The notes: a model not told the origin generated them from the sequence alone. Counted from the first letter of the stretch, positions 5,087 to 53,830 are shown. The stretch: 64,000 bases of DNA from Balanoglossus misakiensis (GCA_040954595.2 CM082588.2:8416844-8480843); one strand, 5' to 3'. Translations and numbers: made by a program.

Positions 5087-5421
5087 CTATCTCTGAAAAT
5101 GGCCTTTTATCCCACGTCCCACGTCTGTTTGCAGTTTCGTTTCACACTCCTTCACCAATGAGACTAATGCGGGTAGTTCCATTTCTTGAAACAAATCCTT
5201 CAGAAGTGTTAAATCGTCATTGCTGATATGACCCTTCTCTTGCAAACAGTAAAATATATCTGAGGGAGATTTCAAATCATGTAATTCTCGTTTTGGTATG
5301 AAGTCTTCTCTTAACAGGCCTCTGAGATTACGCTCATCATCACTTCTGTTTAAACGCTTCTCAAGTTTCATGAACAGGATCTTCAGTGGATTTAATTTTG
5401 TTGTTTTAAAACACTGTGAGT
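5087..5421 (-). CDS. Gene A last exon: death effector domain (DED)
   Basis: LKILFMKLEKRLNRSDDERNLRGLLREDFIPKRELHDLKSPSDIFYCLQEKGHISNDDLTLLKDLFQEMELPALVSLVKEC matches the DED pattern (IP..L..l.s..dlF..L...g.i...nl.lL..Lf). Confidence 0.8.
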
Positions 5422-8400
5422 CTGTAATGATAATGTTAGTGTTAATGTTATATCATACTAAGGTAAACATAATATGCAAATTACAACTTTTTTTCTCAAA
5501 TCTGATCTAATAGACCATTTTGATATTCTGACATATGTAGCTTGTATGATTTTTTTTCCAGAGATTAAATCACATAAAAGTAGGTTTTAAAATTCCATGA
5601 TTTAAATTAGTTAGTTTCATCCAAATTTCAGTGACCATTAAAGTTTATCCTCATAGATCTGCATAACTGTGAAACTGTCAAACCACAATTTGGAGTTGAT
5701 ACATATTGCAGTAGCATAACATCATGATACTTACCTCCATTCGAAGAGCTGCTACCAACTTGCCTCTCCTACATGAGAAAAAGAGACACCCAAGTCATAA
5801 ATAACAGTGAAAGGGGGAAAAATGTAATATGTTTCAATTTTATTTAAAAAAATGTGCTTGAAAACTTTGCGGTTCTCATTACAGTGATTCCCCATGTCGG
5901 CCAAAACTGGCCAATTATACTCAACCAAGTTGTTGAGTATTGAGACTTTCAGTAGTTGCCTAAACACATTCAATTCCAGATAAAATGCAAGACACTGGGT
6001 CTCCATGGGCAGGCAATGTACAGATGGGCACTGATAAAAGCTTAGCAATCATGGGTGAATAAATTGTGACGGGGCTGTGATGTGTGTGTGTGTGTGGGGG
6101 GGTGTGTGCACCAAGTGATTACAATGCATTAAAATCACCTGGGCAATTGGCCACTGTACTAAGCCAACGACAGGAAAATGCACATACTCATGGTCCACAT
6201 AAGATACATTGAAATGTGATAAATTGAACCCAAAACCTAAATTGAAAATTTTATGACTTGTAAGAATCAGATTACATGTACATGCTTTCTCTGCACTCAC
6301 ATCATACAGCACGGACATCTGTTTGTGGTACAACAATGTCATTTCAATTATTCACAAGCTAATACGTTTAGGTGGGTTCTTACATTTGGCATTGCGAATA
6401 ACAGCTCAACAGTTGGTGGGTCATCATTTTTCTGAAACAGCATACGTCCTTGCAGACCACGACCTCCTGGCCTGGCTTTAACGACAACATCCCAGTGGTT
6501 ATCAAAAAATGGGTAGTATGGTCTCTTGTTCAGCACTGACTCCAGATCATAATTCCCTTCTGCGGGGACAGTATTTTTGACAACATCTCCGTATTTCAGC
6601 TCAATATCAGAACTGTATGTTGTTCTTTTATCAGTGTATTGTTTATATTTCTCTTCAGTTTGTAATAAATCTGTAATGGATTCTTGTTCTTTGGCCTCCA
6701 CCAAGTCACATCTTAAGACTGTTGCAGTATCCTTGTGCTCAAGAAGAAGAATCTTTACAATCTGATTTCCAGACTTCTTGAAGTCTGTGATGGTTGATAG
6801 CATGTAACAAATTCGTGGCATGACTTCTTTGATGTATCTTCCCAACGAATATCTGAAAACAATTCCAGACACTTTCAAGGAATGAAAATGGTGAAATGCA
6901 ATTAGATGTTAATCATAGATTACGGAAGGGGTGTGTTATATCACCATTACCTGTGGATACAATAACATCCAATCAAAGGAAGATTTCTTCCGTCAGAGCA
7001 ATATCAACATAACTGCAGTCATTACATTGCATTTCCAAGACTATGATGGTGTATTTTTACAGAAGAAGACTTCAACCTACCCACTCAGTATCTGAGCGTG
7101 AAATTCCACCACATCGCGTTGTACAGTAAAAGAACAATCCTTGGTAACATCCTTCCAGTCACAATTACCATCTTCATCTTTAAGTATGCACAGTTCTGTA
7201 TCATCAGATGCTACACGTGGGATGTCTGGTGGCAGTGGGATGGTTACTTTTACAGGCTTCTTGAACTTCATTCTTTCCCTCTGGCCTCGATTGATATACA
7301 CTATGGATGCGAAGGACACATCGAGAGATTCTCCACCAGTTGGGAAGACACTATCAACTGTGTTATAGCGACAGTCATGGACCTTCAATACGAACAATAA
7401 GCCTCATTGAATGTTGTCACTATAGCAGTACATACATGGATACCTGGCTGAATTATCTCCTGTCTAAGAGTTTAACTGCTTATGGCTGCAATTTGGCACA
7501 ATCAATCAATCAATCAACTGATGCAGGCCCATGCAGCTCCTTCTTAATCCATTGTCATGTTAATCTCTATGTGGGGTAATACCAGGTATGGGTAAATGTT
7601 GGTGGTTGTGGGGATGATGATGATATTTACCTCTAATATCATAGCCTTTTCATCTTCTACGGCATCTTCTGGAACAACGATGCTTATCCGTTCGTCTTTT
7701 TTTGAGGTAAATTTTCCACCTTCTTTGCTGATATCAAATGTGTCTTTATAAGGTCTTGAAATTGCGATGTAAAATGAAAAATGGCAGACTTCTACCTTGA
7801 TATGATTGTCTTCCTGAATATGAATCAACATTTAATGGTAACACTTTTACTTTTTGTGTGTGGTCAGAATCTTCGTGAACAACTTATTAGCACTCCGAAG
7901 ATTTAAACCAGAGAAGCTACACAAACGTGTAAAAGGCTTGGGTCAGCAGGTCTCCGCAGCCTTTTCAACTCTTGTGGAACATAAAAAGTCACACCGCCAT
8001 TTTGGTCGTTGGACAACGGACAAAACATGGCTGGTGTGGTTGGTTATTTCCACATCGAGGCTCACGTGGAATTTGAATGTTGGTGTAAATCCTTGTATTA
8101 AGGCACATCAACAACAAAGCAAATATACTCCAATTGGACAAAACCAAGGTGGAAAAGTGTTATTTGTTAGAAACAGAAACATTTTCTCAGAGACGGTGTT
8201 TTGTTTTGCCAAATGGAAGGTCAGTAGGCTGCAATGACTGACAATTTACATGTCCATGGATACATACATGCACATACCTATACTAATATATATTTACTGA
8301 AATGCAATAATGGTCGAGTTATACGTAGTAAAACTTCACTGTGTAGATCTGTGCTGTAGCATACTTACTTTGACAGTTTTCAACTCTTCCCATGTTTCAC

Positions 8401-11400
8401 CAGTTTTGCTTGTCAGGATGATCTGTTCTCTCTCAAACGGCTGAACATTTAAACACTTCCTCACAAGGTAGACTGGTTTCTTTAGTGTAATGTGATCTGC
8501 CTTAATATCAAGGACATCTGACTGATACCATTCAAAGTCTGCAAGAGGGACCTTGGTGACGTTATGGTTACATGTGACCGACAATGTTGTGTCTTCTTCC
8601 ACACATGCTGGCGGGACCTCGAGTGAAAATCCACATGGTAATTTGTAGGAACGTCTTTCCTTTAATGGAAAAGGAAAACATTGCATTACAAAACCAGAAA
8701 TGGGGCTGGAAATCACACCCCCCCTCCCCATTGAAGGCTAAAATGTAACTAAATTCTGTCATAAAACTCGAATGCATTTGCAAGCAAAAGCGAAGCTCCA
8801 GAGACCAGATCTATTTTATATAATATTTCAAGGCCTTAAAAATGAACAGTTTGAATAGAAAAAGCAATGCGTATACGCTAACCTGCCGGGTGCATGCACT
8901 GTTGCAAGCTGAAAATAGTACATATCATAGTTTCACAATTTGTAGATGTCCATTGAAAATTGTTTTAACCCATCTAGAATACTGTTTAAATACAATTTAT
9001 CAAACATAATCGGTACGTGTGGTCTGCATTGCAAACAACCTATTTAGAAAAAAATACAAATTCATAAAAATACACCGATTTAACGTCAATCATCATGCCT
9101 ACCTCATTAGCAGCAATAAGCTGAATCGATCTTTGGTCTTGAATATCCTCTGAAATGCAGATATGTTAGGGTAGTAGTTGGAATTACTAAGATATGATTA
9201 CTGTTCATGTTTTAACATAAATCAAGCTTGAAATTGTAAATTTCTCCGGTTTCAAGTCTGTGGGACTTACATGGTTTTTTTCACTTGATATGCACTGAAC
9301 TTCTACATATTTCTGCACGTCATAATACCCTAATTGACTTTTTCTTATTAAGTAATAACCCCCGCCGCAGGCGGGTATACGCGAGATTTGGGTACAATTT
9401 GAGACATATAGCACGAGCCGTTATGGAGCGAATTGTACCCAAATCGAGTCGATCAACCTCTAAGGCAACCATTGCATTATTGTCATCTGCAGGTATAACA
9501 TTGTATAAAGATCGATAATAGGCAAAATAAATTGTATTTATTCTCATTAAAAGGAGCATATTTTTTCTTAATAGTGCGGAAGTACCCCTTTGATGAAAAC
9601 ATTTCAAACAAATCGATTATCAGCTGGAAACATAAGAACCTATGGAAGCGTTCAAAATATCATATGTCATGTCATATTGTGTCAGCACTTGCCTGGTTCA
9701 ATCAGAATATCTTCAAGTTCTAAACAATTATCTCCACATATATCACAGATGTCAGCCGATTTTACTTCCGGGTCAAAACCTACAAAGAAATAGGTCAACG
9801 TTATGAGATATTTTTATTACATTTCCTATTTACAAGCCGGACAAGTTTCTTTTTTATGGTGAGAAAGCCATTATCAGAAATTGTATACGTGTTTGAAAGA
9901 AATATTTCAATGTTCTAAACTCCGTGAAATATAATCTTATATTAGACCACGGTTTTTATACAGCTCACTGTATTTACCATTTGTACGTAGCCTCTTCATC
10001 TACATTCTCAACAACATCTCTTATATTCTTTGATTTTGTTTGAAAAGCATACTGCATTTCAACTCGTATAATGTTTGACATGAAAATATAAGGATAAAAC
10101 GGATAATCTCAAATACATTTGTTCACAGTCTGGTCTAAGCATTTTCGTCACCGGATATGAATATTAATTATTCCATGTAAATTTAAATCGAGTACAAATG
10201 ATTGCTCTAAAATCAGCTTACCTTCTTTCATGTACTTCAATTCTGCCCTACACCGTCTATATCGCCACACCTCTATGGTTGTCTTAAGGGGAACATCTGA
10301 TACGTTTAATCCACGAAGCATAGATTCTGTGACGATATCAGCCTTGAATAATTCCCCCAGTTGCCCTCGTCTGTAGTCACTCCATAATTTCTCCAACGCC
10401 TCTGATGTCTGACATGCCAACACAACACACAGACACCCTTGCTTGATTTCTTGAATTGTAATTCCACCAACGCTGTTCAGATACTCTTTCACCTTTGGTA
10501 AATCGTCTTCAGATTTGATGCTGTAAATTTCTCTTTCTATGTGTTCAACTTGATCTGGAGTCAAGTTGGAACCGGAGACGTCAATGTGAATCTCGATTTC
10601 TCCTGAAATATAGTTTATTTTTTAAATAATGCATATGCATGTATCTTTTTGTCATCGAATTGACTATAGTGTGATGTTTTATCTTGTTGCCTCAATTAGT
10701 ATAAAGATAGAATCATGGATGTGTTTACGTAATTAATATTTTTACCTCGAGTTGTTCTGAAGGTATGTGTATAAGTTTGTCCTCCACCAGAAGCTTGTCC
10801 GTCGTTGTGGTCATCGTTACCATCTCCACTTTTACACTCGTTTCCGGATGGGAGAGTTTCAGCCTGTCCTTCTTTGCAGTTGCCAATGGAGATCGAACTT
10901 CCTTGTTCCTGGCCTGGGATTGTTTTCGGGTTGTCGACCCCTTGAACGAGGGAAGAAAAAATTGTAGGAATCTAAATGTCAACATCTTTTAATTTAGAAT
11001 AATACATTTGTCAGTGTTATGAAGCATATATGCAAATTTAAATGTGAGCATATATCTACATGTGTAACACTTTGTCGTGATGCAAGATACAGTTCTGATT
11101 AATCATGCAAATTTTAGTCTTAAGTTGACAACACTTTATGTCGGTATTTTAGTCCTTTCATTCATGATCAGTGAAAATCTTTATGACGTGTAAAATTTTC
11201 TTCTTGAAGACAGTCATTATCATTTACCTTTTGAGGATTCTTCCCCAGGGTCTTCACACTCTGCAGAACTAAGTGTAGAAGAATCCAGCAATTTCTTTTG
11301 TTGAACTGCAATGAAACCATTCTCTGCGGATGTATGAAGTGCTTTACTCAATTCTTGGGATGCGCGTTGAGCACGACCATATTTACACAGGACAGTCATG

Positions 11401-12497
11401 ATGGTGTCTAACCATTTGTTACTTTCGCTTTTGACATTTTGGCATTGTCCAGTGTCACATGACGGGACAGAGATGGCGGGGAAGTGTTCGGCTATGAACG
11501 ATGCAAGGCCTGATTGCTTTGGTTGTATTGTGGGCACACCGGCAGCACAAGACATAAGACCGATCACACCAAATGGATCACCTTTAGTTGTGAATATTAC
11601 CACGAGGTCACACTGCATCAGATCTTTATTTAAGTGGTCCATCGATGCCTTGTTTGGATATAGCCGAATATTCAACAGGTGTGATGCGGCCATCTTCTCC
11701 AGTTTCCGCTGAAACTTTTCGCATGGTGTTTGTGTTACAAGTCCTCTGAACTTCCACTTTGTGTTGTTATCGGAGTAGTTAAAGTAGCGAGCTACTTTTC
11801 CCATGCTACGTGCTGCTGCTTCGAATTCCTCCAGATCTTGCAGACTTGATATTGTGTGTACAGACAGGACTTCTATAGTGTTCCCTAACTCTGAATTACT
11901 AGCTGGACGCTGACCAACACCCATCTTTGCCAAGGGAATGTACTGCTCATGCGCCACTTCTGAATTCAGAGAAACTTGAATCTTCCTCTTGTAGTCATCG
12001 CATACTGATGGACCAACTGACAAAATGGCGGAAGCAGTATTGATATATTCCATAATTTCACCATCAAGGATTTCCAAATCGGAAGGCTCCAAGCTCATGT
12101 TGTCTGTCAAATCAGACAAAACTGGAACGAATCTCGGAATCCCAAGATCCTTTTGAATACACTTTGCAACATCGGCAGTTCCGTTCTTGCAAGCAGTACC
12201 ATATATTGTTGTAATCGGGAGACATTTCTTCAACTCGGGGAATCGGTCAAGGTGACAAATTAACCAGTCCCTTTCCGGTTTCTGATTTCTCTTTACAGTT
12301 GGAAGAATCAACTCGACTCCATGTTTGCTCGCGTCCTCCACCTCTGCGTCAGTTGCTTCCAAAACCATGAAGGAGACTTTATTTTCTCTGACAGCAAGGT
12401 CTATCGCTAGTTGTCTTTCAGTGATACATGTTGCTATGTTACGCCTTCTAGGCCACCATTCTTCTCCAACAACCAATACCCGATTACTGTGAGACAT
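5087..12497 (-). CDS. Gene A (spliced model, 1197 aa): GT4 glycosyltransferase-like + TRADD-N-like + ZU5-ZU5-UPA + death effector domain (PIDD-like C-terminal half)
   Basis: Exons 12497-11228, 10940-10746, 10602-10222, 9779-9693 (GC donor), 9149-9103, 8659-8369, 7813-7631, 7382-7081, 6852-6384, 5768-5735, 5421-5087. All are flanked by AG and GT/GC with compatible phases; the sum is 3594 nt, an open frame ending at TAG. The join between the two halves (9693->9149) is inferred. Confidence 0.65.
6384..6852 (-). CDS. Gene A exon: UPA-like domain following the ZU5 pair
   Basis: Beta-rich 156-aa exon directly after the second ZU5, ending ...GLQGRMLFQK...; position equivalent to UPA in PIDD/ankyrin/UNC5; phase 2->0 junctions fit. 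Confidence 0.6.
7081..7382 (-). CDS. Gene A exon: C-terminal part of second ZU5 domain
   Basis: ...ASIVYI...MKFKKPVKVTIPLP...ELCILK...WKDVT...VVEFHAQILSG, the typical ZU5 F.KPV.vtiPlP / W.DvT motifs. Confidence 0.8.
7631..7813 (-). CDS. Gene A exon: end of ZU5-1 (HFS motif) and start of ZU5-2
   Basis: EDNHIKVEVCHFSFYIAISRP...ISKEGGKFTSKKDERISIVVPEDAV, parallels PIDD1 'HFSW...VSRP...GG.L.S...v.v.fP.gA'. Confidence 0.85.
8369..8659 (-). CDS. Gene A exon: first ZU5 domain
   Basis: LPCGFSLEVPPACVEEDTTLSV...VPLADFEWYQSDVLDIK...LKKPVYL...EREQIILTS..GETWEELKT, ZU5 motifs. Confidence 0.8.
9340..9486 (-). pseudogene. Truncated copy of the gene-B 105-aa module exon, broken by a small inverted-repeat element
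   Basis: DDNNAMVALEVDR matches gene B exon 22404 up to ~9450. It is then replaced by GATTTGGGTACAATT...AATTGTACCCAAATC and CCCGCCTGCGGCGGG hairpins, with an in-frame stop at 9320. Confidence 0.7.
10222..10602 (-). CDS. Gene A exon: TRADD-N-like domain
   Basis: ...VKEYLNSVGGITIQEIKQGCLCVVLACQTSEALEKLWSDYRRGQLGELFKADIVTESML...LKTTIEVWRYRRCR, the invertebrate TRADD-N-like pattern (GSl.i.v.c.t.eaLe.LW.dY.sG.L); symmetric phase 1-1 exon. Confidence 0.75.
11228..12497 (-). CDS. Gene A exon: GT-B fold family-4 glycosyltransferase-like domain
   Basis: VLVVGEEW...RQLAIDLA, GVELI.P, ILSVGP, DLMQCDLVVI...DPFGVIGLMSCAAGVPTI.PKQSGLA, the GT4-type found in invertebrate immune proteins. Confidence 0.85.
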
Positions 12498-12744
12498 CCT
12501 ACAAAATGAATCCATAATCACATTAGAAAAATACAAAAAATTGAATTTAGCGTAAATTTGGTAGAAATTTAATTCGTTCTTGGGCGTGGGCTTACATAGA
12601 GTGACTTGATCGTTTTTTCGACTGGATGCTATTTCATTTTTTGATATTCAATTTATTCCCGAGACAATGGATATTACTTGTGGGTGAATTAATTCATTCT
12701 GACGACATGTACGTGCAGCGTCATTACCACTATATTATCTGTTC

Positions 12745-14580
12745 AATATGGCAGTTGCACATACGAATCAAATACATTTTGCCAGAAATTGTATATTTCT
12801 GTTCGGAAACAGAGAATGGAGACAGAGGGAGTTAAATCCCAAGGTGTCATTCGACAAGAGTATGATTTTACCCTTCCATACGATCGACCATAGCCCCGCA
12901 CTGTCAACGTATTATACTAACACAAGAATATACCAGGTGTTATCTTATGACTTTGTACAAAGTCTGTCCACGTATGCTGACCATCATGATAAGAGAAGAA
13001 TGGCAGAACAAGAATGGGCAAAATAGGGCAGTTGCTATGCCCCCGAAACTTTGTCCGGCACAAATAACAAGCATAGGTCACACAGTCAAAGTACAGTCGT
13101 ACGCTATATCTATTCAATTTGCTCTACCTGTATCTGTCGACTCTGGATAGCAACGAATGTATGCATCGATAAGTTGAAATTTAACATACCTAAAAACGTA
13201 TCTAAAAACAGATCCCCACCTCTAGATGTAAATTGTCGCGGATAGGTAATGCTTAGTGTCGAAGTCTAACAGAAATGAATTGCCTACAGCCGCAACAGTG
13301 ACATCAACAGACAGACAGCAAATGATATACAGCTGCAATAATTGTAGTGGGTGCTGCTAGGTTGACTGGTGTGTTCGCGCCACTCAACCTAACAGCACCC
13401 GCTACAATCATTGCAGCAAAATGATATAGTGCCTTGGAACAGAAGTATCAATATAAAAGCAAAATATGTGTTTCTCGTTCTGATGAAGAAAGGCCTTTAC
13501 CACACACAGTCAGGATACGAACGTGGATACGCGCCTGTACATTAGTCACTAATTCACGGACGCACACTAATATGCAACTTTATAACAACGGAACATGTCA
13601 ACGCGATTGGACAGTTATGCGCCATTGTGGAGTGCGACAATATGGCAGTTGCACATACGAATCAAATACATATTGGCCAGAAATTTTATCTTTCTGTTCA
13701 GAAACAGAGAATGGAGACAGAAGGAGTTGAATTCCAAGGTGTCATTCGACAAGAGTATGATTTTACCCTTCCATACGATCACAGACGATCGACTATAGCC
13801 CGGCACTGTCAACTTATTATACTAACACAAGAATATACCAGGTGTTATCTTATGACTTTGTACAAAGTCTGTCCACGCATCCTGACCATCATGATGAGAG
13901 AAGAATGGCAGAACAAGAATGGGCAAAATAGGGCAGTTGCTATGCCCCCGAAACTTTGTCCGGCACAAATAACAAGCATAGGTCACACAGTCAAAGTACA
14001 GTCGTACGCTATATCTTGAATTTGCTCTACCGGTATTTGTCGACTCTGGATAGCAACGAATGTATGCATCGATAAGTTGAACTATAACATACCTAAAAAC
14101 GTATCTAAAAAAACCAGATCCCCACCCCCAGATGTAAATTGTCACGGACAGGTAATGCTTAGTGTCGAAGTCTAACAGAAATGAATTGCCTACAGCCGCA
14201 ACAGTGACATCTACAGACAAACAGCAAATGGTATACAGCTGCAATAATTGTAGTGGGTGCTGCTAGGTTGACTGGTGTGTTCGCGCCACTCAACCTAGCA
14301 GCACCCGCTACACTCATTGCAGCTAAATGATATAGTGCCTTGGAACAGAAGTATCAATATAAAAGCAAAATATGTGTTTCTCGTTCTGATGAAGAAAGGC
14401 CTTTACCACACACAGACAGGATACGAACGTGGATACGCATCTCTCCTGTATTAAACATTGCAGCTATACATTGGTCACTAATTCATGGATGCACATTAAT
14501 ATGCAACTTTAGAAAATCATGTCACCTGAACATGCAGACGCGCTTGGACAGTTATGCGCCATATTGGGGTGCGGCAACCG
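12745..14580. repeat. Tandem ~0.9-kb repeat (2 units), each with an ~86-bp hairpin
   Basis: 'atggcagttgcacatacgaatc' at 12748 and 13642; hairpins at 13332-13417 and 14237-14324; same array at ~46350-48150. Confidence 0.9.
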
Positions 14581-15879
14581 CATTTTTGTAGTCCCAATTA
14601 CCAGTCAAGAAGAATACGTGTGAAAATCTTGTACTGAGTAACAATTACAAAGAAACTTTAATAGTTTTTAATGAATAATCACCCATGGCTACGAACTGTA
14701 TTTTGTATTTATGAATATTCCGAGGAGCAGCTGATTACCGAATGAATTCAAGCAAATTATTTTGTCATGAATTTCCGTGATAACTTACCTGTTGAAGAGT
14801 TTCGCCCTCCAGTAGAGTTAAACGATTGCCTTCGAAGGTTCAAGCCAGAGGCAGAACAAACTATTTCCTCCTATTATACGCACTTACATAAAGGTTGCAA
14901 AGCTGGCGTTATATACAACCAGGTCTCATTTAAAATTCTTGCTGGTCATGGAACGATCACACCATCTCTTTTGTACGCAGTCGCAGACAACACACAATTT
15001 GGGCGTTTAAACGAGGCTCATATGGACTTCGAGCTGAGTATAAAACCAATCAAAAACACGAAACAAGAACTCCCATTGGACTATAGACCGAAGGCGGCTC
15101 TGCGGCTGGCTCGTGTTGATGTCATCATTCTTTGCTACGTTCTCGAATTTTCCATTCAGCGCTATCATAGTTTTTATAATCCCCCCCCCCCACGATCTGA
15201 TATGTAATTTCCCTAACCCACTAGTCGCTTGGTGGTTTTTTGTCTTTTTGAATATTCTCAATACTGTTCGTCCGTTTGTGTGCTTTGAGCGAGTTTCTGG
15301 TAATGAGCTGAGTTTCGAATTTGGGGATGCGCTCCTGGTTTCGGTTACCGTCGACCAAGCGACTTTCAGAGCAAAAATATGTAGCTGCAAAGCGTTTATC
15401 AATCTCATATATGTGAGCATGTTCATATGAAATGATTAGACATTAACATATCGCAGACTGCAAACGTCATCATGTCACATTAATGGCCGATTACGCCCAT
15501 CGTTTTGATATAAGACGTCGTAGATATAGGTCCATAGACACAAACCTCTTGATTTCACGAATAATGCCATTTCAGCTCAACGACAGCCATGGGTGTTGAA
15601 CTCGTATATTACAGCGATCCCAAAATTTATGCCACATTAACGGCCGATTTACACCCATTGCTCTGAAGTATGACATCATAATTACGTGTCCATACAAAGA
15701 CTAATTCCTCTGGGAGATGTTTTTGATGCCTTCCTATGCCCCATCGATATCCTACCAAACTTCAATATGAAATGCTTTGCATCAAATTTGAGCAGGGTTG
15801 GTTAACTATTTTCGAAACACCTGACGTCACCTCCTGGTCCATATATCTGTCTTTCTCGAACTTGACTTTGTTATGTGTG

Positions 15880-16290
15880 CCTTGTTGGTTTATCTCTGCT
15901 GTGCTGTGCTGTATTGCCGTTCCTTTCCTTTTCCTGCTTTCACTCGCTCCTCTTGGTCCGAAAACACAACGTACGTCTCACTCCTCTCAATAAAAAAATG
16001 AATCATGATTTTCCGGACCGTCTAACGGTCGCTGTCGTACTCCGAATCGTATATCCGAAACGGGGGAAGAAAATGGTTGTTTATGAATACCAGTACTTGT
16101 GCTGGGTTGGCTGTCAAGTCACTCGTAATAGACGATATGTGTTGGAATGCCAGACACCATCAGGGCCAAAGCGATTTTTTAAATACAAAAATCATGTAAG
16201 TTGCAGTCGTATGCTTAGAAACTAGTATGTAAGGTTTGCGAACATTTGATAATTGAGGATGGTATTGAGAAGATATTTCATATTAGACAT
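15880..16290 (-). pseudogene. Degenerate tandem copy of the orphan ORF at 16517-16984
   Basis: Shares 'LDSQPSTST' coding sequence and a 'VVFSDQEER..AGKGK'-like segment with the upstream ORF, but in broken frames; paralog at 49459-49857. Confidence 0.6.
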
Positions 16291-16516
16291 GCGCGTTATC
16301 CATGTTCACGGACAATAAGGACAGGGTCGTGATGAGAGGGGACTGCAGTTTGAGGGATTGTTATAATTCAGTGCCGACCACTTGCATCAAAGTTGAACAC
16401 AACAAAACACAAGGTTGTGTACTTTCCGAAATGTTTATTAAAAATAATAAAATATAGGTAAAAAGGCAGCGGTCTGGTTAAGTGGAGTCACCGAGCGTCA
16501 CTGTCCTTCAAGAAAT

Positions 16517-16984
16517 TTAATTTGGAGATACACGAATGCTCCTCCTTCTAAACTTCCGCATGAACCAACGGACAAGACGTTGTCCGCAGCACGGCAGACA
16601 TCCGGTTGGTTTTTCTTCTTCGTCCTGAACCTGGTTCGGGGACTCTTCGGTGTTTTTCTCCTGGGCGACGTCGGCCGATTTCTTGCCTTTTCCTTTCCCT
16701 CTTCGCTTTTTCTCGTCCTCCTCGTCGGAAAAGACAAGATAGAACGGCTCATCATTCCCTTCCGTATAAACTCCGGAATCCTGGTTTCTCGGATCCTCGT
16801 CACCACTGGTGTCCGACTCGGAGTCATATCCGCGAATTGGCGGCATGACTTGAAAGTTTGAGAAGGCATAAATACTACTGGTACTCGGTTGGCTGTCCAG
16901 CCACTCGTAAAAGTCTTGGTCAGTACCCATGGGCACGCCAGGTACAACCAGGCAGAGGATTATAGTTAGTAATACACAAATCAT
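16517..16984 (-). CDS. Orphan intronless ORF (~155 aa): hydrophobic signal-like N-terminus, acidic middle, cationic Cys-containing C-terminus
   Basis: ATG at 16984 in 'ccacaATG'; MICVLLTIILCLVVPG...; AATAAA on the minus strand at ~16434-16439; GC-richer than flanks. Confidence 0.5.
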   Translation of the reverse strand: MICVLLTIILCLVVPGVPMGTDQDFYEWLDSQPSTSSIYAFSNFQVMPPIRGYDSESDTSGDEDPRNQDSGVYTEGNDEPFYLVFSDEEDEKKRRGKGKGKKSADVAQEKNTEESPNQVQDEEEKPTGCLPCCGQRLVRWFMRKFRRRSIRVSPN

Positions 16985-18680
16985 TGTGGAGTCGTAGACA
17001 AGTGTTGTTGAGTATGCTACTCTGAAACTCTTGCCAAACATTCTAATTCTTCTTCGGTCTAAGAACGCGTCTGTGAGGTCGCTAAATATAAAGAATTTCC
17101 CATGCTGCACAGAGCACGCTCAAATTCACCGAGTGCTTCGTGTGCGTTCGAAGGCAGGCAGTGTATTTTCGCCTTTCAAAAGCAAAGGCGTTGCAATGAG
17201 AAAGTTATTCATACCGACCAAAATGATGTCTGTAAAATTATGTGGAGAATAATTATAATTTTATGGTTGGGGTTTATTAAAATGCGAAACAAAATAATCA
17301 CTGCCGGGCATGAAAGGGTAATTTCATCTTTTATTCAAATTATCGTCAAAACAGGCAATCAACAAATTGGTACTGTGACACTATAGTTTACACCACGAGA
17401 AAACTGCTGATGGTAGCTATGATGTGTCACACAGAAAACTCAATATGTCACACATCACATTCTTTAGTTATCTGAAATGTTCAAATACTAGTAGTATGGT
17501 ACAATGGGTATGACTGATCAAATACTTTACACTTGCGTGTCATTATCTTTTCAAACTTGAAAATGCTAATTACCGCCAGCCATCGAAATACACTCACTGA
17601 ATTGTAAACCACCGATCGTTCGTTGGTCTACAGTATGTGGATAGAAAAATGTACAACATGGCAAAGAACAGTAAGGGCTTACAAGAAGAGTATGTGAATC
17701 TGCAGAGGGCGCTATTTTTTCCTGTACCCAAACTCAACAAGAGTGGACACAGCTTTCCTTACAAATGAGTTGTGATACATTTTGTCATCTCTTGGTTCTT
17801 ACATTTTGCTAAAAATGAAAAATTCCTGTGACAAAATGAATTTTTCAGGGTAAAGTATGTACAATGTTTAAAGAAAAGCATCATTCTTATAAATACAAAA
17901 AAAAAAGTTGAACACATTCTTCAACTGAACCGATACAAAAGAAAACTATCTGCATATATTGGAGAAATAAATCCAAAAGTAACGAATAGTACAAACACAA
18001 AAAACTAATTCAAATTCATGTTCTGTAGAGCACACACGTGGTTATATGACACACAATGTATATATCCAGACACACAATATTTACTGTGTTATAGGGAAAG
18101 CCAAATAACAAACTATAAATAATATATATAACGCTCGGAAACATTGACAGCTAGAATTGCCGGTTTTCAAGACAACTCCAAAACGTTGCTAACAGTCAGA
18201 ATGAACATTTCAGGAAACAGTTCTAAAATAAGACTTTTCACTGCAGTGTATGTAATTGGTTGAAATGTGATAGAAGCAACCACAAGATCGTACAATAAAT
18301 TCTTAAAACACACAGTAACGATAAATCCCTCAATTGTTGATTCAAAATGATGTATGCTCACAAATTTGTCTGACCAAGCCACTTTCCCCAGTTATACTCA
18401 AAGCCACACATGAACGTGTACATTATTGTGAACTTTCAACCTTTGAAGGGTGGGTTTTGGTTGACTAGAACATTCAAAATTCATGACAAACACATTATTA
18501 CTATGGACCAACAATTTTAGGCTAAATTCCTGAAATAACATTCATTTTGCAGACGGAGGCCTGTGGTTGGTTAACATGCTTGAGGCTCACAGGAAATCGT
18601 TGTTTTTTGGTATCCCTAAATGATTTATTTCGTCACTTTTTAATTAGTAATTTACTCTTTACTGCTGATTACAAGTTAAA

Positions 18681-19883
18681 TTATTTTTTTTCCTGTTCAG
18701 ATAACCTTGCTTTGTACTCCTGTGCATACTTGCCCGAGAAATACTCTTGACCACAGGCTTCTATTATGTTTAGGTATTTCAGTGCATTGGCAGAGTCATC
18801 TTGTGCTTGGTAAACGTGGGCAAGATTATAACATGCCCATAGTATGTGATATGGGTCAGAGAGGGTGCTGATCAGATGGGTAAATATTTCACATGCATCA
18901 CTGTACTGTTTCAAGTTTGTGAGGGCATCGGCCTTCCAGAGTGAAGCAAGGGGATACAAACCACCTGCATATGCAACTGCTTTGTCGAGACACTCTATGG
19001 CTTTTAACAGGCACTGACGATTGCTTTCTATCGGATTGTGTTGGTATTTGGCCACGTATGTGACTCCTAGGTATAACGCGAAAAATGGATTGTCTGGATC
19101 TTGTGCTGCAGCATTGTGAATAACTTGCAGTGCTTTTTCGAAGTCTGGAACATTGCTGTGGCAGTAATAAAGACGTGCAGACTCCACCGTGAAATTGGAT
19201 AAAGGGGTTAATTCGAGTGCTTTCTGGGTGAGTTGACCTGCTTCTTCATAGCGACCTTCATCAAGTGACAGCTTACTTAAAAATGACAAAGCATAGCTGT
19301 GATGGGCATTTTTCTTAAGAACTCTCTCAAGCAAATTTCTTCCTTGTGCCATTATTTGTAAAGCTTCCAGACATTTTGAATCTCCACAGACACGATCACG
19401 TTTGTACGCAAAAGAGAATGCTTGCCAAAACAGCCAATCTGTTTGTTCTGGAAGTTCTACTAAAGCACGATCAAAGCTATCAATTCCCTCATCACACGTT
19501 TTTTTGCGAAAATAAGAAAGAGAGACACCCTTGTGAGCATATACATACGCTTTCTGTTTCCCTGACAATTTATCAAGTGACAAAGATGTTATCAACTTCA
19601 GTGTTTCATCAACTCTCTCCATCTCACCCGACATGAAATAAACCCATGCTTTATCTGCAAGAAGAACCAACTTATCACCAAGTGGACCATCGTCGTCACC
19701 ATCACAGCTGTCAAGTTCTTTCTGGTTGTCGGTGAGGGCGTCATCAAACCACTTCAAAGCGGCACTTGGATCTCTCTCGTCTTCTGATCTCAGTTTGGAC
19801 ACGTACAGGTAACCTTTCATTGCTTTATGGGGAACTGGAGAGACCTCCTGGTTGTGATGTTTAAGGGTGTCGTCCAATCTGCA
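18681..19883 (-). CDS. Gene B last exon: IFIT-like tetratricopeptide repeat domain
   Basis: Multiple TPRs (ALKWFDDAL, LVLLADKAWVYFMSGE, AYVYAHKGVSL, FDRALVELPE, GRYEEAGQLTQKALELTP, KAIECLDKAV) arranged as in IFIT proteins; preceded by the CHFTW exon. Confidence 0.85.
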   Translation of the reverse strand, partial: CRLDDTLKHHNQEVSPVPHKAMKGYLYVSKLRSEDERDPSAALKWFDDALTDNQKELDSCDGDDDGPLGDKLVLLADKAWVYFMSGEMERVDETLKLITSLSLDKLSGKQKAYVYAHKGVSLSYFRKKTCDEGIDSFDRALVELPEQTDWLFWQAFSFAYKRDRVCGDSKCLEALQIMAQGRNLLERVLKKNAHHSYALSFLSKLSLDEGRYEEAGQLTQKALELTPLSNFTVESARLYYCHSNVPDFEKALQVIHNAAAQDPDNPFFALYLGVTYVAKYQHNPIESNRQCLLKAIECLDKAVAYAGGLYPLASLWKADALTNLKQYSDACEIFTHLISTLSDPYHILWACYNLAHVYQAQDDSANALKYLNIIEACGQEYFSGKYAQEYKARLSEQEKK

Positions 19884-22800
19884 CTGTAAGAACTACAGTA
19901 CATGGAAAGGTATATGTTACAGTGTCATGTGAAAACACAGGTGTTTGTACAGATGCAATGTTGATATTTTATTGATTGTAATTAAGGTCGCTAAAATGAT
20001 AAGATCTCCCGATTTCACGTTATACGAGCGCTCGCACTATGTTCAGGCCTATACCCCACTGACACATAAACAGATAAAGAAATCTCCTAATGTGTCAGTG
20101 GGGTATAGGCTCGAACTAGTTGTATGACGCGAAATCGGGAGATCGTCTAAGCTACTGATTTATCGTTTATAGCCACCTTCCAATTAATAAAATATCTGTG
20201 TGTGAAAACATCAGACGCATGATTGAAACAAAATAAGATGTGATTGATGAAGAAAACTCTAATGATTGACAATTTTTTTAAATATTACACTTTAAATGAT
20301 GCAAAAAGTGGATATTCAGCATGTTGCTTTTTATATTTCAATTTGAGTCATTATTTACATCTGAGAGAAATAAACATTTCCTTGGTTTTCGTGACATTTC
20401 AACAATTCAGATACAGCTGTTATGAAACGTTGTACTTCAAATACTCAAATAAATGTCCTCACCTCAAAACTACGGTCACAAAATTCTTCGAGTTTCCAGG
20501 TAAAGTGACAGGGAAACCTTTGCAGTATTTCTTCATAGGACTTTGCTGTATGCTTCAATCCCGTTATGTGTGTAACTGAAAATTCTATTGAATAGTAAAA
20601 ACAAAGTTTGGAATTTAAACTGATTTCACGATTTTAATTTTAAATTGAGATTGGTCTATTGAAATTAGCTTTTATTTATTATGGTATGCCTACATTTTAT
20701 GAGAGAGTTGAGTTGTATCAAACAGTGAATGAAACAACAGAAATATCTATCAGCGCAACAACATAAATTAAATATCTATCAAAAGAAACTAAAACAACCA
20801 AAATAACGTCAATATTGAGTGATCTTGTTCATTCAGTTTTTTGAAGCAATATTCCTGTGGGAAAATCAGTTGAAAACTAATAATTGAGTTTAAAAATAAA
20901 TATTCCGGACCATGTTAAAGGTATACGGTCACCTATGGAAAATTAGCTATAGTTATCATGGCAAATTGAGATCTAACCAATCACAGATTTTCAGTCAGTG
21001 GGTGGCACATGCGAAAAAAAAGAGCGCCGCCTTATGTTCTTTAGAACGATCAAATACCCCATTTCAGCCATGTATGGGCATGTGTAAATTGGACGTGACC
21101 ATATAACTTTAAGTATATTATAATCATTTTGCAAAAGATTGTCAATTGCAGGAAAGAAAGGGAAGATTTTGAGACCGAATTCTTAAATTTGCTTTTGCTC
21201 CTAGACCCAACAAATCTGTGATAGACAATAAATTTGGCCTTTCAGGGTCATGCATACTTTCATAATCGAAGTTGTTAGGAGCATATTCTTTTTTTTTCAG
21301 TAGGAGCAGATGATATAACTGATGCATGGATATGTTGCACATAACTGCATTACCTTCGATGTTTTTGTCTACAGGTGGCGCAGTTGCACTTTTCGTTTCC
21401 TTAAGTTCGTCGATAGTCTGAAGTAACTGCCGATTTTTGTCCATGGTCGTTTGATTTTCCTCTTTCAGTTTGATATTTATCATGGTTAGTTTCGAACTTT
21501 GGTTTTCACTGCTCTTCAGCATTTCCTTCAGACGCTGACTTGTCTGCTCAGTTTCTTCACCAAGAACACGAATTCTTACTTCACTTTCTCTCTTAAGGAG
21601 CGTATATTCCTTCTCCTTGGATTGTAGTATGTCTTGAATCTTCTTGTTTTCGTTAAAGAGCGAAGTGATGACAGAGAGATAGTTGTCTGTCGAGATTGGT
21701 TCCAAAACACGAGCAGCTCCTTCTTTTGAAAAAGATTCAGCTAGAATCTTGTCTGATTCTTTGGTGCCAGTTTTCAAGATGTTGACGCCACTTTGATTGA
21801 CAAGTCTCTTCAGTTCTGATGAAAATGTGATTCAATATTGTTAGCAAAATGTTATATATGATCGATACGATGTAACCCCCTTTGCAATTGGGTCAGAGGC
21901 AATAGAATGCAAATAAATGGGCACTATCTATTTTACTTTATGCTCGATGTGCAAATCAATGGCAGACTAGTACAGACCTATCTTTAAAATCATACTTCAA
22001 CAAGCAGCCAACTAAACCAAAACATTCCCTTTAGAACAAATTTCAGCAGCAAGCTTGTTTGTTTAAAAGAAATGTTTGTGAACACTGACCTTCTCTCTCA
22101 TATCTGAATGTCTCTCCCTCTTGTAAGGTGATTGAAGACAACTGTTGACTATCCAAAATCAAACACCGTCTGATTCCTAGGACACCAAGAACTTCTGGCC
22201 GTTCATCCAACAACGAAGACAACTGTAGAGGGCGCTGTATTTTTATCAACAGGACTATTGGTGTCTGTGTGTCTCCCACATCAACATCTATCTCAGCTTC
22301 CAAAGTGCCGGAACCACCAAGTAGTTTTGATAAACCGATTCTGTTTTGGCGTGTGGCATAGACATGTCGATCAACCTCCAAGGCAACCATTGCACTATTG
22401 TCATCTGCAGGTACAAAGATCGATAATAGGCAAAATAAATTGTATGTATTCTCATTAAAATGAGCACATGTTTTACTGAATAGTGCAGGAGTATACTTTT
22501 TATGCAAATATTTCAAACATATGGATTATCAGCTAGAAACATAAGAACCTATGGAGGCGTTCAAAATATCACAATATGTCATATCATATCTGTAAACACT
22601 TGCCTGGTTCAATCAGAATATCTTCAAGTTCTGAACACTTCTCTCCACATATTTCACAGATGTCAGCCGATTTCACTTCCGGGACAAAACCTACAAAGAT
22701 ATACGTCAACGTCATGAGATGTTTTATTTATTACATCTCCTATTTACATGTCGGACAAGTATTTTGTGATGGTGAGAAAGTCATTATCGAGAAATTTAAG

Positions 22801-25366
22801 GCCAAATAAAAAAATGTGTTGTTCCGATTACCCTACCCTAATTTTAGGCCGCCGACCCTAAACTTTTTGGAGCTTCGTAAACCGAAAGTAAAAATAACGA
22901 TGTCAAATATACAAAATTTGTGAAAATTGCGAGAATCTCGCAAGAACTACGACTGCCAAAGATGTAAAAAATTGCAATTGAGTACAAACGATTGCTCTGA
23001 AATCAGCTTACCTTCGTTCATGTACTTCAATTCTGCTCGACACCGTCTATATCGCCACACCTCTATGGTTGTCTTAAGGGGAACATCTGATACGTTTAAT
23101 CTATGAAGCATAGATTCTGTGACGATATCAGCCTTGAATAGTTCCCCCAATCTCCCTCGTCTGTAGTCACTCCATAATTTCTCCAACGCCTCTGATGTCT
23201 GACATGCCAATACAACACACAGACACCCTTGCTTGATTTCTTGAATTGTAATTCCACCAACACTGTTCAGATACTCTTTCACCCTTGGGAAATCATCTTC
23301 AGATTTGATGCTGTAAATTTCTCTTTCTATGCGTTCAGCCTGATCTGCAGTCAAGTTGGCATTGTCGACGTAAATATGAATCTCGATATCCCCTGAAATA
23401 AAGTTTATCAATATTATAATACATTGGCGTGAAATAATTTAACTTCAGCCTGACCACTCATGTATTGAACACGCAAGGGATAAATCCACCATCTTTAAAA
23501 TCTGTTGACCGCATTTAAATGTCAGGGCGGGAGAAAACCACTTTTGTTCGAAACATCCCATAATTTTTGATGGAGAAATACATATATTGTATTGTGAGTG
23601 TGCTTACGTAATGAATATTTTACCTCGAGTTGTTCTGAAGGTATGTGTGTAAGTTTGTCCACCACCAGAAGCTTGTCCGTCGTTGTGGTCATCGTTACCA
23701 TCTCCACTTTCAAACCCGTTGCCCGGTGGAAGATTTTCACCCTGTCCTCCTGCGCTGTTGCCATTGGTGATCGAACTTCCTTGTTCCTGGCCTGGGATTG
23801 TTTCCGGGTTGTCGACCTCTGGAAAGAAGTAAGAAGCATTGCAGGTATCTAAATGTCAACATCTTTTAATTTAGAATAATACATTTGTCAGTGTTTATTA
23901 TGAAGCATGCAAATTTGATCTTATATCTACATGTGTAACACTTGGTCGTGATGCAAGATAGTTCTGATTAATCATGCAAATTTTAGTCTTAAGTTGACCA
24001 CACTTTATGTCAGTTTTTTAGTCCTTTCATTCATGATCAGTGAAAATCTTAATGACATGTAATATTTTCTTCTTGAAGACAGTCATTATCATTTACCTTT
24101 TGAGGATTCTTCCCCAGGGTCTTCACACTCTGCAGAACTAAGTGTAGAAGAATCCAACAATTTCTTTTGTTGAACTGCAATGAAACCATTCTCTGCGGAT
24201 TTATGAAGTGCTTTACTCAATTCTTGGGATGCGTGTTGAGCACGACCATATTTACACAGGACAGGCATGATGGTGTCTAACCATTTGTTACTTTCGCTTT
24301 TGACATTTTGGCAGAGTCCAGTGTCACATGACGGGACAGAGATGGCGGGGAAGTGTTCATCTATGAACGATGCAAGGCCTGATTGCTTTGGTTGTATTGT
24401 GGGCACACCGGCAGCACAAGACATAAGACCAATCACACCAAATGGATCACCTTTTGTTGTGACTATTACCATGATGTCACACTGCATCAGATCTTCCTTT
24501 AAGTGGTCCATCGATGCTTCGTTTGTGTGAAGCTGAATGTTTAATTGACGTGACGCGGCCATCTTCTGCAGTTTCCACCGAAACGTTTTGCATGGTGTTG
24601 ATGTTACAAGTCCTCTGAACTTCCACTTAGTCTTTTTATCATAATAGTTAAAATGGCGAGCAACTTTTCCCATGCTATGCGCTGCTGCTTCGAATTCCTC
24701 CAGATCTTGTAGATTTGATACTGTATGTACAGACAGGACTTCTATAGTGTTCCCTAATTCTGAATTACTGACTGAACGTTGGTCAACACCCGTCTTTGCC
24801 AAGGGAATGTACTGCTCGTGCTTCACTTGTGAATTCACAGAAGCTTGAATCTTCCTCTCATACTCATCGTATACTGATTGTCCAACTGACAGAATGGCGG
24901 AAGCCGTATTGATATAGGCCATCATTTCATCATCTACGATTTTCAAATCGGAAGGCTCCAAGCTCATGTTTTCTGGCATTTCAGACAAAACCGGAACAAA
25001 TCTCGGAATCCCGAGTTTATCTTGAATACACTTTGCAGCATCAGCAGTTCCATTCTTGCAAGCAGTGCCATAAACTGTTGTAAATGGGAGACATTTCTTC
25101 AACTCGGGGAATCGGTCAAGGGGACAAATTAACCAGTCCCTTTCCGGTTTCTGATTTCTCTTTACAGTTGGAAGAATCAACTTGACTCCATGTTTGCTCG
25201 CGTCATCCACCTCTGCGTCAGTTGCTTCCAAAACCATGAAGGAGACTTTATTTTCTCCGAGTGCAAGGTCTATCGCTATTTGTCTTTCAGTGATACATGT
25301 TGCTATGTTGCGCCTTCTAGGCGACCATTCCTCTCCAACAACCAACACATTGTTAATGCGAGACAT
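18681..25366 (-). CDS. Gene B (spliced model, 1341 aa): GT4-like + TRADD-N-like + 105-aa module + coiled coil + IFIT-like TPR domain
   Basis: Exons 25366-24097, 23818-23624, 23392-23012, 22690-22604 (GC donor), 22404-22090, 21815-21354, 20575-20463, 19883-18681. Splice sites and phases are consistent; the sum is 4026 nt, an open frame. Confidence 0.8.
19982..20187. mobile_element. Intronic fold-back MITE (TTAA-GG end)
   Basis: GATCTCCCGATTTC/GAAATCGGGAGATC (20003-20144) and GCCTATACCCCACTGACACAT/ATGTGTCAGTGGGGTATAGGC inverted repeats. Confidence 0.65.
20463..20575 (-). CDS. Gene B exon: IFIT N-terminal signature
   Basis: Encodes VTHITGLKHTAKSYEEILQRFPCHFTWKLEEFCDRSFE; L..l.CHFTW.L is the hallmark N-terminal motif of IFIT proteins. 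Not in the ORF track on this strand. Confidence 0.85.
20915..21112. mobile_element. Kolobok-like MITE with TTAA target duplication
   Basis: TTAA-AGGTATACGGTCACC...GTGACCATATAACT-TTAA; the paralogous site at ~60955 is empty with a single TTAA; second copy at 45714-45906. Confidence 0.85.
21354..21815 (-). CDS. Gene B exon: coiled-coil region
   Basis: Heptad-rich E/K/Q/L sequence; phase 1-1 exon; paralogs at 61203-61619 and 62717-63175. Confidence 0.75.
22090..22404 (-). CDS. Gene B exon: conserved 105-aa module (possibly a divergent TRADD-N/ACT-like fold)
   Basis: DDNSAMVALEVDR...FRYERE; three intact copies in the window, each exactly 315 nt and phase 1-1. Confidence 0.7.
23012..23392 (-). 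CDS. Gene B exon: TRADD-N-like domain
   Basis: Near-identical to exon 10222-10602. Confidence 0.75.
24097..25366 (-). CDS. Gene B exon: GT4 glycosyltransferase-like domain
   Basis: Paralog of 11228-12497 with the same length and motifs. Confidence 0.85.
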
Positions 25367-32874: not shown

Positions 32875-33773
32875 TGTGGCTGAAGCCATGCAAAAACAAA
32901 GGAATTTCGTATTTTTAATTATGAGGGATATGCACGAACAGTTTGTTGCTTTAAAACCTTACTCCATAAAAATAGTTCCCTTTTTGTTACGAGTTTCGAT
33001 ATTGTAGACTTTTAATTTTCACAGAGAAAGATGTTGTGACTTTATGTGTACCTTTGAAGGTCATTGTGAACACATCGACAAACCATATTTCGCCCAAAAG
33101 TTTTACAAGTAGTCCATCTACGATTGTCATATCACTACACATTTTTACCTCGTGTTTTCGACTTCGCTATGGGACGGTGAAGTACACCCTCGTCTCTCGT
33201 TTCGCACCCTTCGATATTTCGTTCGTATTTCGAAACTTCCCGACCACAAGGCTTTACAAGTCGCCAGCGAGGTAATATATCTTTCGGTATTCTTACAGAT
33301 ATGAATTGTATTTCGTGAAACTTTATTGTAATTAGACTTTGACGAGTTGTCTGCATCTTGTACATCAGTCACGTACATCGAACTGTGTTGCTTGCGCATA
33401 TCTGTTTTCGATTGAAATCATTCTCGATTTTCGTATATGTAATTCTTTCGATTTGACATTTTGTATTTGTATTTATGTTTCAGTTTTTACGGTTTACGGT
33501 TAACTCGGTCTATACCATTTGGTCTTGGTCTATTCGAGACTAGGTTTATTCGGTCTATTCGAATCAATCTCGGTCATTCTCGAGGTCTATTTGGCCTATT
33601 CGCATCGAGGTCTGCGCACATCTCGTCTTTCGAAGTCTTTCGACTATTGTGTACAGTCTCGTACGGTTGCTTTCGGCGATCGCTCGATCGATTTATCGAT
33701 AATAAACCGAAGACCCGTATATGGAAACTCGACTCTGACTTTTGAATATTACGGAAAAGCTTTGGCGGTCACA
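32875..33773 (+). repeat. 5' LTR
   Basis: TGTGGCTG...GGTCACA; only one difference noticed versus the 3' LTR (33396 G / 41912 A). Confidence 0.95.
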
Positions 33774-41285: not shown

Positions 41286-41390
41286 GTTGTTCTCAGCGAC
41301 ACAGGGGAGAGCTGAGAAATAGCTTGGACGTATTTGGTAGTTGTTTTCAGTGTTTCGATTAGGTAAAATCAATGTGATTTTAGGGGGGAG

Positions 41391-42289: not shown

Positions 42290-42294
42290 CTATA

Positions 42295-52606: not shown

Positions 52607-53830
52607 TTATTGCTGATTGCAAAATTGGACCCGTTTCTTTTGTTGAGGGGGCTTTGTTTTCGCTTCCCGTGCCATTTTAGCCAAGATATACTCCAGCCCA
52701 CACTCTTCTGCTTTGTTCATGTATTTCAGTGCATTGGCAGAGTCGCCTTTTGCTTGGTAAACGTTGGCAAGATGATAACATGCACATGATATGAAGAATG
52801 GGTCAGAGAGGGTGCTGATCAGATGGGTATATATTTCACATGCATCACTGTACTGTTTCAAGTATGTGAGGGCAACGGCCTTCTGGAGAGAAGCAGCGGG
52901 ATACAAACCACCTGCATATGCAACTGCTTTGTCGAGACACTCTATGGCTTTTAACAGGCACTGACGATTGCTTTCTATCGGATTGTGTCGGTATTTGGCC
53001 ATGTATGTGACTCCTAGGTAACACGCGAAAATTGGATTGTCTGGATCTTGTGCTGCAGCATTGTGAATAACTCGCAGTGCTTTTTCGAAGTCTCGAACAT
53101 TGCTGTGGCAGTAATAAAGACGTGCATAATTCACCGTGAAATTGGATAAAGGGGTTAATTCAAGTGCTTTCTGGATGAGTTGACCTGCTTCTTCATAGCG
53201 ACCTTCATCGAGTGACACGTCACTTAAAAGTGCCAAAGCAAAGCTGTGATGGGCATTTTTCTTAAGAACTCTCTCAAGAAAATTTCTTTCTTGTGCCATT
53301 ATTTGTAAAGCTTCCTGACATTTTGAATCTATACAGACACGACCACGTTTTTGTGAAAGAGAGAATGCTTGCCAAAACAGCCAATCTGTTTGTTCTGGAA
53401 GTTCTACTAAAGCACGGTCAAAGCTAACAATTCCCTCATCACACGTTTTGTTAAGAAAATAAGCAAGAGAGACACCCTTGTGAGCATATACATACGCTTT
53501 CTGTTTCCCTGACAATTTATCAAGTGACAAAGTTTCTATCAACTTAAGCGTTTCATCAACTCTCTCCATCTCACCCGACATGAAATGAACCCATGCTTTA
53601 TCTGCAAGAAGAACCAACTTATCACCAATTGGACCATCGTCGTCACCATCACAGCTGTCGAGTTCTTTCTGGTTGTCGGTGAGGGCGTCATCAAACCACT
53701 TCAAAGCGGCACTTGGATCTCTCTTGTCTTCTGATCTCAGTTTGGACACGTACAGGTAACCTTTCATAGCTTTATGGGGAACTGGAGAGAACGCCTGGTT
53801 GTGATATTCAAGTCTGTCGACCAATCTGCA
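52607..53830 (-). CDS. Gene C last exon: IFIT-like TPR domain
   Basis: Paralog of 18681-19883 with many amino-acid replacements. Confidence 0.85.
   Translation of the reverse strand, partial: CRLVDRLEYHNQAFSPVPHKAMKGYLYVSKLRSEDKRDPSAALKWFDDALTDNQKELDSCDGDDDGPIGDKLVLLADKAWVHFMSGEMERVDETLKLIETLSLDKLSGKQKAYVYAHKGVSLAYFLNKTCDEGIVSFDRALVELPEQTDWLFWQAFSLSQKRGRVCIDSKCQEALQIMAQERNFLERVLKKNAHHSFALALLSDVSLDEGRYEEAGQLIQKALELTPLSNFTVNYARLYYCHSNVRDFEKALRVIHNAAAQDPDNPIFACYLGVTYMAKYRHNPIESNRQCLLKAIECLDKAVAYAGGLYPAASLQKAVALTYLKQYSDACEIYTHLISTLSDPFFISCACYHLANVYQAKGDSANALKYMNKAEECGLEYILAKMAREAKTKPPQQKKRVQFCNQQ

Follow-up and report, generated by a model that had tools for sequence, protein, structure and literature searches.

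How neighbouring genes come to share one front half while ending in completely different rear halves, and what such proteins might do, is the question raised by a 64,000-nucleotide (nt) stretch of Balanoglossus misakiensis DNA (CM082588.2:8416844-8480843), called the window throughout, with coordinates counted from its first letter. Three genes, A, B and C, all lie on its minus strand. The explanation that we favour, with moderate confidence, is a tandem immune-gene array with a constant front made of a likely inactive GT4 domain and a TRADD-N domain, in which B and C carry tetratricopeptide repeats (TPR) homologous to those of IFITs and A is likely a recent chimera with a predicted self-cleaving ZU5-ZU5-UPA-DED tail.

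Gene A, rebuilt by joining 11 exons by coordinate (12497 to 5087), encodes 1197 amino acids (aa) and gene B, rebuilt in the same way from eight exons (25366 to 18681), 1341 aa; neither has an internal stop, in agreement with the uninterrupted frames that an earlier, sequence-only reading of this DNA had claimed for both. All introns are GT-AG, except for a GC-AG donor after exon 4 in each gene. The first four exons measure 1270, 195, 381 and 87 nt in A and B alike, and every one ends in phase 1. Exon 1 (A, 11228..12497; B, 24097..25366) encodes a GT4-conflict domain (PF20706; E 3.1e-32 in A and 2.5e-29 in B), exon 2 (10746..10940; 23624..23818) a linker, which in A is of low complexity and has no Pfam match, and exon 3 (10222..10602; 23012..23392) a TRADD-like N domain (PF20694; E 1.2e-9 in each), the GT4 and TRADD matches all being above the Pfam cut-off. 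The 87-nt exon 4 (9693..9779; 22604..22690) carries the GC donor; its A copy contains Cys and weakly matches the Ptychodera relative P0004, described below, at the corresponding place. Identity between the two cassettes is 90–93% at the nt level and 85% in protein (547/644 aa), and the introns within them differ in length. The equal exon lengths, the phase 1 ends and the presence of one shared cassette upstream of different tails (ZU5-DED in A, IFIT-like TPR in B) thus stand as first described, with ‘near-identical’ being slightly too strong a term. The ratio of non-synonymous to synonymous substitution rates (dN/dS) between the cassettes is 0.49 (confidence interval 0.35–0.69), the A copy is free of stops although neutral evolution would have produced about 7, and changes assigned to the A and B branches (24 vs 37, p 0.12) show no excess on A; on these counts the A cassette has stayed coding and shows no decay. 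Divergence between the two GT4 exons is patchy, from 2 to 23 differences per 127 nt (p 7e-6), and gene conversion is therefore suggested.

Behind its cassette, gene B continues into an unnamed alpha/beta module (exon 5, 22090..22404), a helical or coiled-coil region (exon 6, 21354..21815), an exon resembling an IFIT N-terminus with a CHFTW motif (exon 7, 20463..20575) and an IFIT-homologous TPR superhelix with the stop codon (exon 8, 18681..19883). Relatives were sought with the GT4 exon of B, and the best 150 of 268 representatives were examined. The full order GT4, TRADD-N, module, coiled coil, CHFTW and TPR occurs in two of these 150, the top two: Ptychodera flava XP_070569242.1 (P0004) and Glandiceps talaboti XP_077977119.1 (P0005). 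Exons 5 and 6 both match these proteins, the former at E 1e-17 to 4e-22, and the CHFTW exon is kept in the two. A single stretch of alignment between B and P0004 (aa 148-1090, 41% identity) spans all seven B junctions, and the gene B order is, as far as these predicted proteins go, conserved in two other enteropneusts. Gene C (52607..63796) has its 5′ end outside the window, and its six remaining exons join in frame into an open frame: the module and coiled coil are present twice (63796-63482 with 63175-62717, then 62236-61922 with 61619-61203), followed by a CHFTW exon (60619-60507) and a TPR exon (53830-52607) that is 83% identical to that of B. The same doubling of module and coil is found in the Glandiceps protein. 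The exon 5 module was considered as a second TRADD-N, but it had no Pfam or Atlas match, and profile comparison with exon 3 gave a probability of 0.5%; its model has a predicted local distance difference test (pLDDT) score of 55, and the ferredoxin-like folds that it resembles, at low confidence, are matched with Z scores of at most 5.6. That B is followed by a separate IFIT gene was rejected, because the exon has a phase-1 acceptor, no alternative ATG exon was found upstream of the CHFTW exon when one was looked for, and the relatives are fused; in B, C, P0004 and P0005 the IFIT part belongs to a fusion and does not form a stand-alone two-exon gene.

The TPR half of B and C is, as judged by sequence and profile comparison, homologous to vertebrate IFITs. 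Searched alone, the 37-aa CHFTW exon gave two PDB matches at E<10, namely the N-termini of IFIT2 (E 0.33) and IFIT3 (E 1.3), and the best natural matches of the TPR exon were IFIT2 and IFIT5. A five-row profile of the IFIT stretch matched IFIT5 over residues 8-366 (E 2e-11), and its matches to IFIT1, 2 and 3 began at their N-termini; only designed consensus TPRs ranked higher, and other natural TPRs matched only from position 145 on. Against the Atlas, the Glandiceps stretch returned 8 of 10 rows named IFIT (0.96–0.97), and Foldseek with the Glandiceps model placed IFITs at ranks 1–7, with OGT close behind. The IFIT-like identity proposed from the DNA therefore holds, through a CHFTW segment and collinear IFIT-type TPRs found by sequence, profile and structure comparison. 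Word-index searches gave three matches with the TPR exon, all generic TPR, and 44 with the IFIT profile (1 Glandiceps and 43 unnamed or generic TPR, with no vertebrate IFIT among them). Some invertebrate proteins bear the label ‘IFIT-like’ in automated annotations. The family has been described as arising with interferon in jawed vertebrates and as confined to them, three TPR candidates from Saccoglossus having been rejected (PMC3688568), and the passages of PMC13197388 concerned with IFITs name only vertebrates; listings and passages of the literature, with subscription papers outside the scope, contained no report of an invertebrate IFIT.

Homology of fold is not matched by conservation of the RNA-binding surface. 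The comparison covered K150, R186, Y250, R253, Y254, R260, H287, Q288 and K257 of IFIT5, the last of which we take to be an RNA-contact residue. IFIT5 RNA-contact mutants are tabulated in PMC9677429 (Table 5). Identity at these positions is 0/9 in B and 1/9 in C, as mapped indirectly through two low-identity alignments with IFIT5 numbers counted by hand, and the position of K150 is Tyr in all five sequences; basic residues adjoin the mapped K150 and R186 positions. The TPR region of B is net acidic (51 K+R vs 64 D+E). The proposal that the TPR half is a nucleic-acid sensor was not borne out: RNA sensing by B is not supported, because none of the nine mapped contact residues is kept, and B probably does not read RNA as IFIT5 does. 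The TPR exons of B and C differ with a dN/dS of 1.03, compared with the 0.49 of the A and B cassettes (Fisher p 0.016), a value that fits diversifying or relaxed selection.

The GT4 domain in the constant half is also altered. In a tree of 145 rows, which includes A and B and leaves out 7 short relatives, the two genes sit in a clade of 28 tips; all 15 members looked up among the other 26 are enteropneust proteins. The best relatives are at 30–40% identity, and a word-index search for longer GT4 relatives found none. In GT4 enzymes the nucleotide sugar is bound by the EX7E motif (PMC8760489). Of the 147 relatives with coverage of this motif, 98 have it intact; among the 28 tips of the A/B clade, one of which does not extend to the site, none does. 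The two motif positions are D307 and M315 in B, with A identical there, and the basic Arg/Lys pair for the nucleotide-sugar donor is likewise gone from both. The GT4 of A, of B and of the whole clade is likely a pseudoenzyme. Tails carried by relatives within the clade include NHL, ankyrin and kinase domains; the relative P0006 has a Bcl-2 tail.

The rear half of gene A is of another kind. Its first ZU5 domain begins in an exon at 8369..8659 (PF00791 at E 0.073, below the Pfam cut-off; aligned to the ZU5 of relatives P0092 and P0037) and ends, with the sequence HFS (aa 768-770), in an exon at 7631..7813 that also starts the second ZU5 domain; the latter is completed at 7081..7382, with no HFS at its end and with matches to ankyrin ZU5 structures (E 0.002–0.004). 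A UPA-like exon (6384..6852), a 34-nt linker exon (5735..5768) and a last exon with a death effector domain (DED) and the stop codon (5087..5421; PF01335, E 7.7e-11) follow. The presence of two ZU5 domains is argued for by the ankyrin structures and by alignment to relatives, Pfam itself remaining below cut-off. UPA found no direct match in Pfam or PDB and was assigned by position: the alignment with P. flava P0037 runs on without a break past the ZU5 pair of that protein, and alignment to P0044 fits as well. Aligned with P0037, the 3′ exon chain of A matches across aa 667-1043 (377 residues, E 5e-24). The earlier domain calls hold on this evidence, GT4-conflict, TRADD-like_N and DED being above the Pfam cut-off, ZU5-1 weak and UPA without a direct match. 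The predicted PIDD-type self-cleavage signal was also recovered, as one HFS site after ZU5-1 and none after ZU5-2; PIDD is cleaved at HF/S after each ZU5 (PMC3210808). By analogy, the A tail is predicted to be a self-cleaving cell-death module.

How this tail came to stand behind the cassette is suggested by intron 4 of gene A. This intron still carries the acceptor of a B-type exon 5 and the 39 coding nt that follow it (9448..9486; 37/39 nt identical to B), the acceptor bearing a 10-nt insertion that is absent from B and C. The remnant is followed directly by a short inverted repeat with 24-nt arms (9385..9445; single copy in the window), a possible transposon remnant that starts at the breakpoint, and then by DNA unrelated to B. 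In a 32-row tree the GT4 of A pairs with that of B (100/100), inside the group formed by the IFIT-bearing B, P0004 and P0005 (94/89, not starred). Two of the best 150 GT4 relatives have a clear ZU5 pair, which precedes GT4. Gene A is likely a recent DNA-level chimera in which the splicing of the junction is predicted; its earlier model used a 47-nt bridging exon (9103..9149, phase 1 to 0) that is uncertain, chosen by frame only and without a match in relatives. Freely interchangeable halves, as the sequence-only reading had it, are not what the evidence fits; it fits one directional event, a break within exon 5 of a B-type gene and the fusion of its front part to a ZU5-DED gene. That A supplied the cassette was considered less likely, since remnant and tree point the opposite way.

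Several points weigh against the favoured explanation. The exon junctions of A, B and C are predictions from DNA, and P0004 and P0005 are annotation models; in P0004, aa 909-1024 seem to run from a truncated IFIT into the start of another GT4, and a similar tandem array in Ptychodera is therefore suggested. Inactivity of GT4 is a prediction only, because one Glu of EX7E is dispensable in some GT4 enzymes (PMC8760489). The TPR ratio of 1.03 could reflect relaxed selection in C, and the cassette ratio is not proof of a working fusion, because coding may have lasted inside a B-type gene until a very recent break. Four models of the A junction were tried and all were open (1191–1205 aa), several bridges being possible; the open frame is weak evidence, because 12 loose bridging exons preserve it, exon 4 spliced directly to the ZU5 exon breaks the frame, and a path through 9486-9271 stops at 699 aa. 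The last two of these facts would suit a different view, which we hold to be somewhat unlikely, that B and C are functional IFIT fusions and that A is not one gene but a duplicate of B, either truncated at a stop in the exon 5 remnant or decaying, next to a ZU5-DED gene that is separate or has lost its 5′ part. Of the two acceptors, the remnant one at 9486 outscores the modelled one at 9149 (7.5 vs 5.7), the scores being rough because the matrix was trained on about 20 sites of the window, including the exon 5 acceptors of B and C; the A order, with GT4-TRADD-N before ZU5, occurs in 0 of the best 150 GT4 relatives; and models with GT4 and TRADD-N alone are common in the family table of PMC8195603. 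However, the gap between exon 4 and the ZU5 exon is only about 1 kb, as is usual for introns at this locus, and the interval yielded neither an ATG exon with a good donor nor a polyadenylation hexamer; the 3′ exons of A are all open with intact splice sites, and the insertion in the remnant acceptor has no counterpart in B or C. Convergence of a generic TPR on the IFIT pattern is very improbable in our judgement. Identity to IFITs is only 15–20%, VIA-align scores of OGT (19.1), Pins (18.9) and IFIT2 (18.8) amount to a tie in which structure does not by itself single out IFIT, the folded model is that of the Glandiceps relative and falls below pLDDT 50 in the first 54 residues, and acorn-worm TPR candidates have been judged non-IFIT (PMC3688568). 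That 2013 paper, however, examined three other candidates, from Saccoglossus, and a non-repeat CHFTW segment together with a collinear 360-residue match is common to all four IFITs and to no other natural chain listed.

The sequence-only reading had further suggested that A and B/C co-assemble through their GT4/TRADD-N half as a pair of IFIT sensor and DED executioner. The two genes are neighbours with an 85% identical half in common; B lacks a death fold but has a sensor-like repeat, the reverse of A, which has a DED and no repeat domain; and the patchy divergence of exon 1 would fit gene conversion that keeps surfaces alike. Yet tandem duplication is enough to account for the adjacency and the shared half on which such a pair rests; the B-type gene is kept in two other species while an A-type partner is found in 0 of the 150 best relatives, homotypic recruitment is assigned to death-fold domains and not to TRADD-N in the family paper (PMC8195603), and the RNA-contact residues of IFIT5 are not retained in B. 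We regard co-assembly as unlikely. A bolder combination, which we consider improbable but mention for what it would imply, makes IFIT older than interferon: the acorn-worm IFIT would be the invader-binding half of a pseudo-GT/TRADD-N receptor, to which a shuffled neighbour adds a self-cleaving DED output, so that a pair would be seen at its birth. Under the favoured explanation of an array with a chimeric last member, every protein would instead act alone, as its own switch. A break within exon 5 would have fused the last unit of the array to a ZU5-DED gene lying downstream. From its place between the constant and variable halves, TRADD-N may keep both quiet until a pathogen signal arrives, and the dead GT4 may offer a surface for binding or as a decoy. 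The fast-changing IFIT-fold groove of B and C would bind an invader ligand or a partner, the ligand probably not being 5′-triphosphate RNA read in the IFIT5 manner. In A, HF/S cleavage after ZU5-1 would leave a ZU5-UPA-DED piece of roughly 430 aa, which a disturbed N-terminal half would release and which might then bring in an adaptor or caspase that bears a DED, on the pattern of PIDD or CARD8/NLRP1. All of these steps rest on analogy, a further point against the explanation.

The surrounding DNA bears on the array itself. The 3′ flank of B (12789..18959) repeats after C (46348-52593) at 91.5% identity over 6.2 kb, and C, B and the A cassette are for this reason taken as successive units of a tandem array. 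The start codons of A and B each lie one base 3′ of a splice acceptor, and A/B similarity upstream of them ends after about 14 nt; no first exon or promoter was found for either gene in the intervals examined (12498-12790 and 25367-26290), and motifs resembling interferon-response elements showed no rise upstream of A and B over the window background. Repeats of roughly 900 bp, direct and inverted, occupy 12744-14577, just upstream of gene A, and 46348-48143. Both copies of the shared flank contain an open reading frame (ORF) of 150–200 aa, acidic then basic (16520-17119 and 50087-50533, minus strand), that matched no Pfam family at E 0.001. At 52281-52593 lies a tandem duplicate of the 3′ third of the C TPR exon, the end of this second copy being more B-like than the in-frame one. 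The last intron of gene C holds a retroelement (54292-59636) with a reverse transcriptase (PF00078, E 1e-18), a CCCH-finger gag-like ORF, inverted ends at 80% and an ORF without a Pfam match that, from a motif, is presumably recombinase-like; the element is likely DIRS-like. A BEL/Pao retrotransposon at 32875-42295, with its coding region in several frames, has 905-bp long terminal repeats that are 99.7% identical, and its insertion is therefore recent.

If the IFIT assignment is true, the fold is present in at least three genomes (this one, Ptychodera and Glandiceps), its origin would move back to the deuterostome ancestor, as already shown for Mx (PMC11789081), and it would serve as part of a large receptor that lacks the known RNA pocket. 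The hemichordate clade whose GT4 domains are likely inactive would shift the focus of assays from sugar transfer to binding, and the locus would show the family making new domain orders, by a cut within an exon of a tandem unit with introns retained and not by retrocopying. A constant GT4 + TRADD-N front with variable tails, as in A and B, is known from cnidarians, amphioxus and hemichordates (the DEDD2 clade; Kaur et al. 2021, PMC8195603), the tails in its supplement including TPRs, four DEDs, ankyrin, beta-propeller, AIG GTPase, LRR and Bcl-2, the Bcl-2-tailed protein being our P0006. TRADD-N at the junction of constant and variable parts is modelled there as a switch within one chain, with recruitment through death folds, of which gene B has none. 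In that work, however, the TPR tails named are TTC28-like whereas those of B and C are IFIT-like, GT4 is treated as an active modifier, with inactive GT4 unmentioned in the parts consulted, whereas here it is degenerate, and shuffling is attributed to retrotransposition whereas at gene A introns are kept; the supplement rows listed contain no match to ‘IFIT’ or ‘UPA+DED’. Coral proteins in the same paper with the order HEPN + TRADD-N + ZU5 + ZU5 + UPA + Death resemble A in placing TRADD-N before ZU5-ZU5-UPA and a death fold, with PIDD-like self-cleavage predicted for such ZU5 fusions, and differ in having HEPN and a death domain where A has a degenerate GT4 and a DED. With PIDD1 and the FIIND of CARD8/NLRP1, gene A shares a ZU5-ZU5-UPA-like module before a death fold and HFS after ZU5-1, although the single site of A contrasts with HF/S after each of the two ZU5 domains in PIDD, its front is pseudo-GT4/TRADD-N and not LRR, and its death fold is a DED and not a death domain. 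Vertebrate IFIT1, 2, 3 and 5 have in common with B and C the CHFTW N-terminus, a collinear TPR superhelix of ~360 residues and a tandem gene cluster, while the IFIT part of B sits behind about 900 residues, is split by an intron and does not keep the RNA-contact residues. Set beside these systems, the novelty of this locus lies in a tail of IFIT type, a clade of degenerate GT4 domains, and a shuffle that kept introns and left a breakpoint visible at the DNA level.

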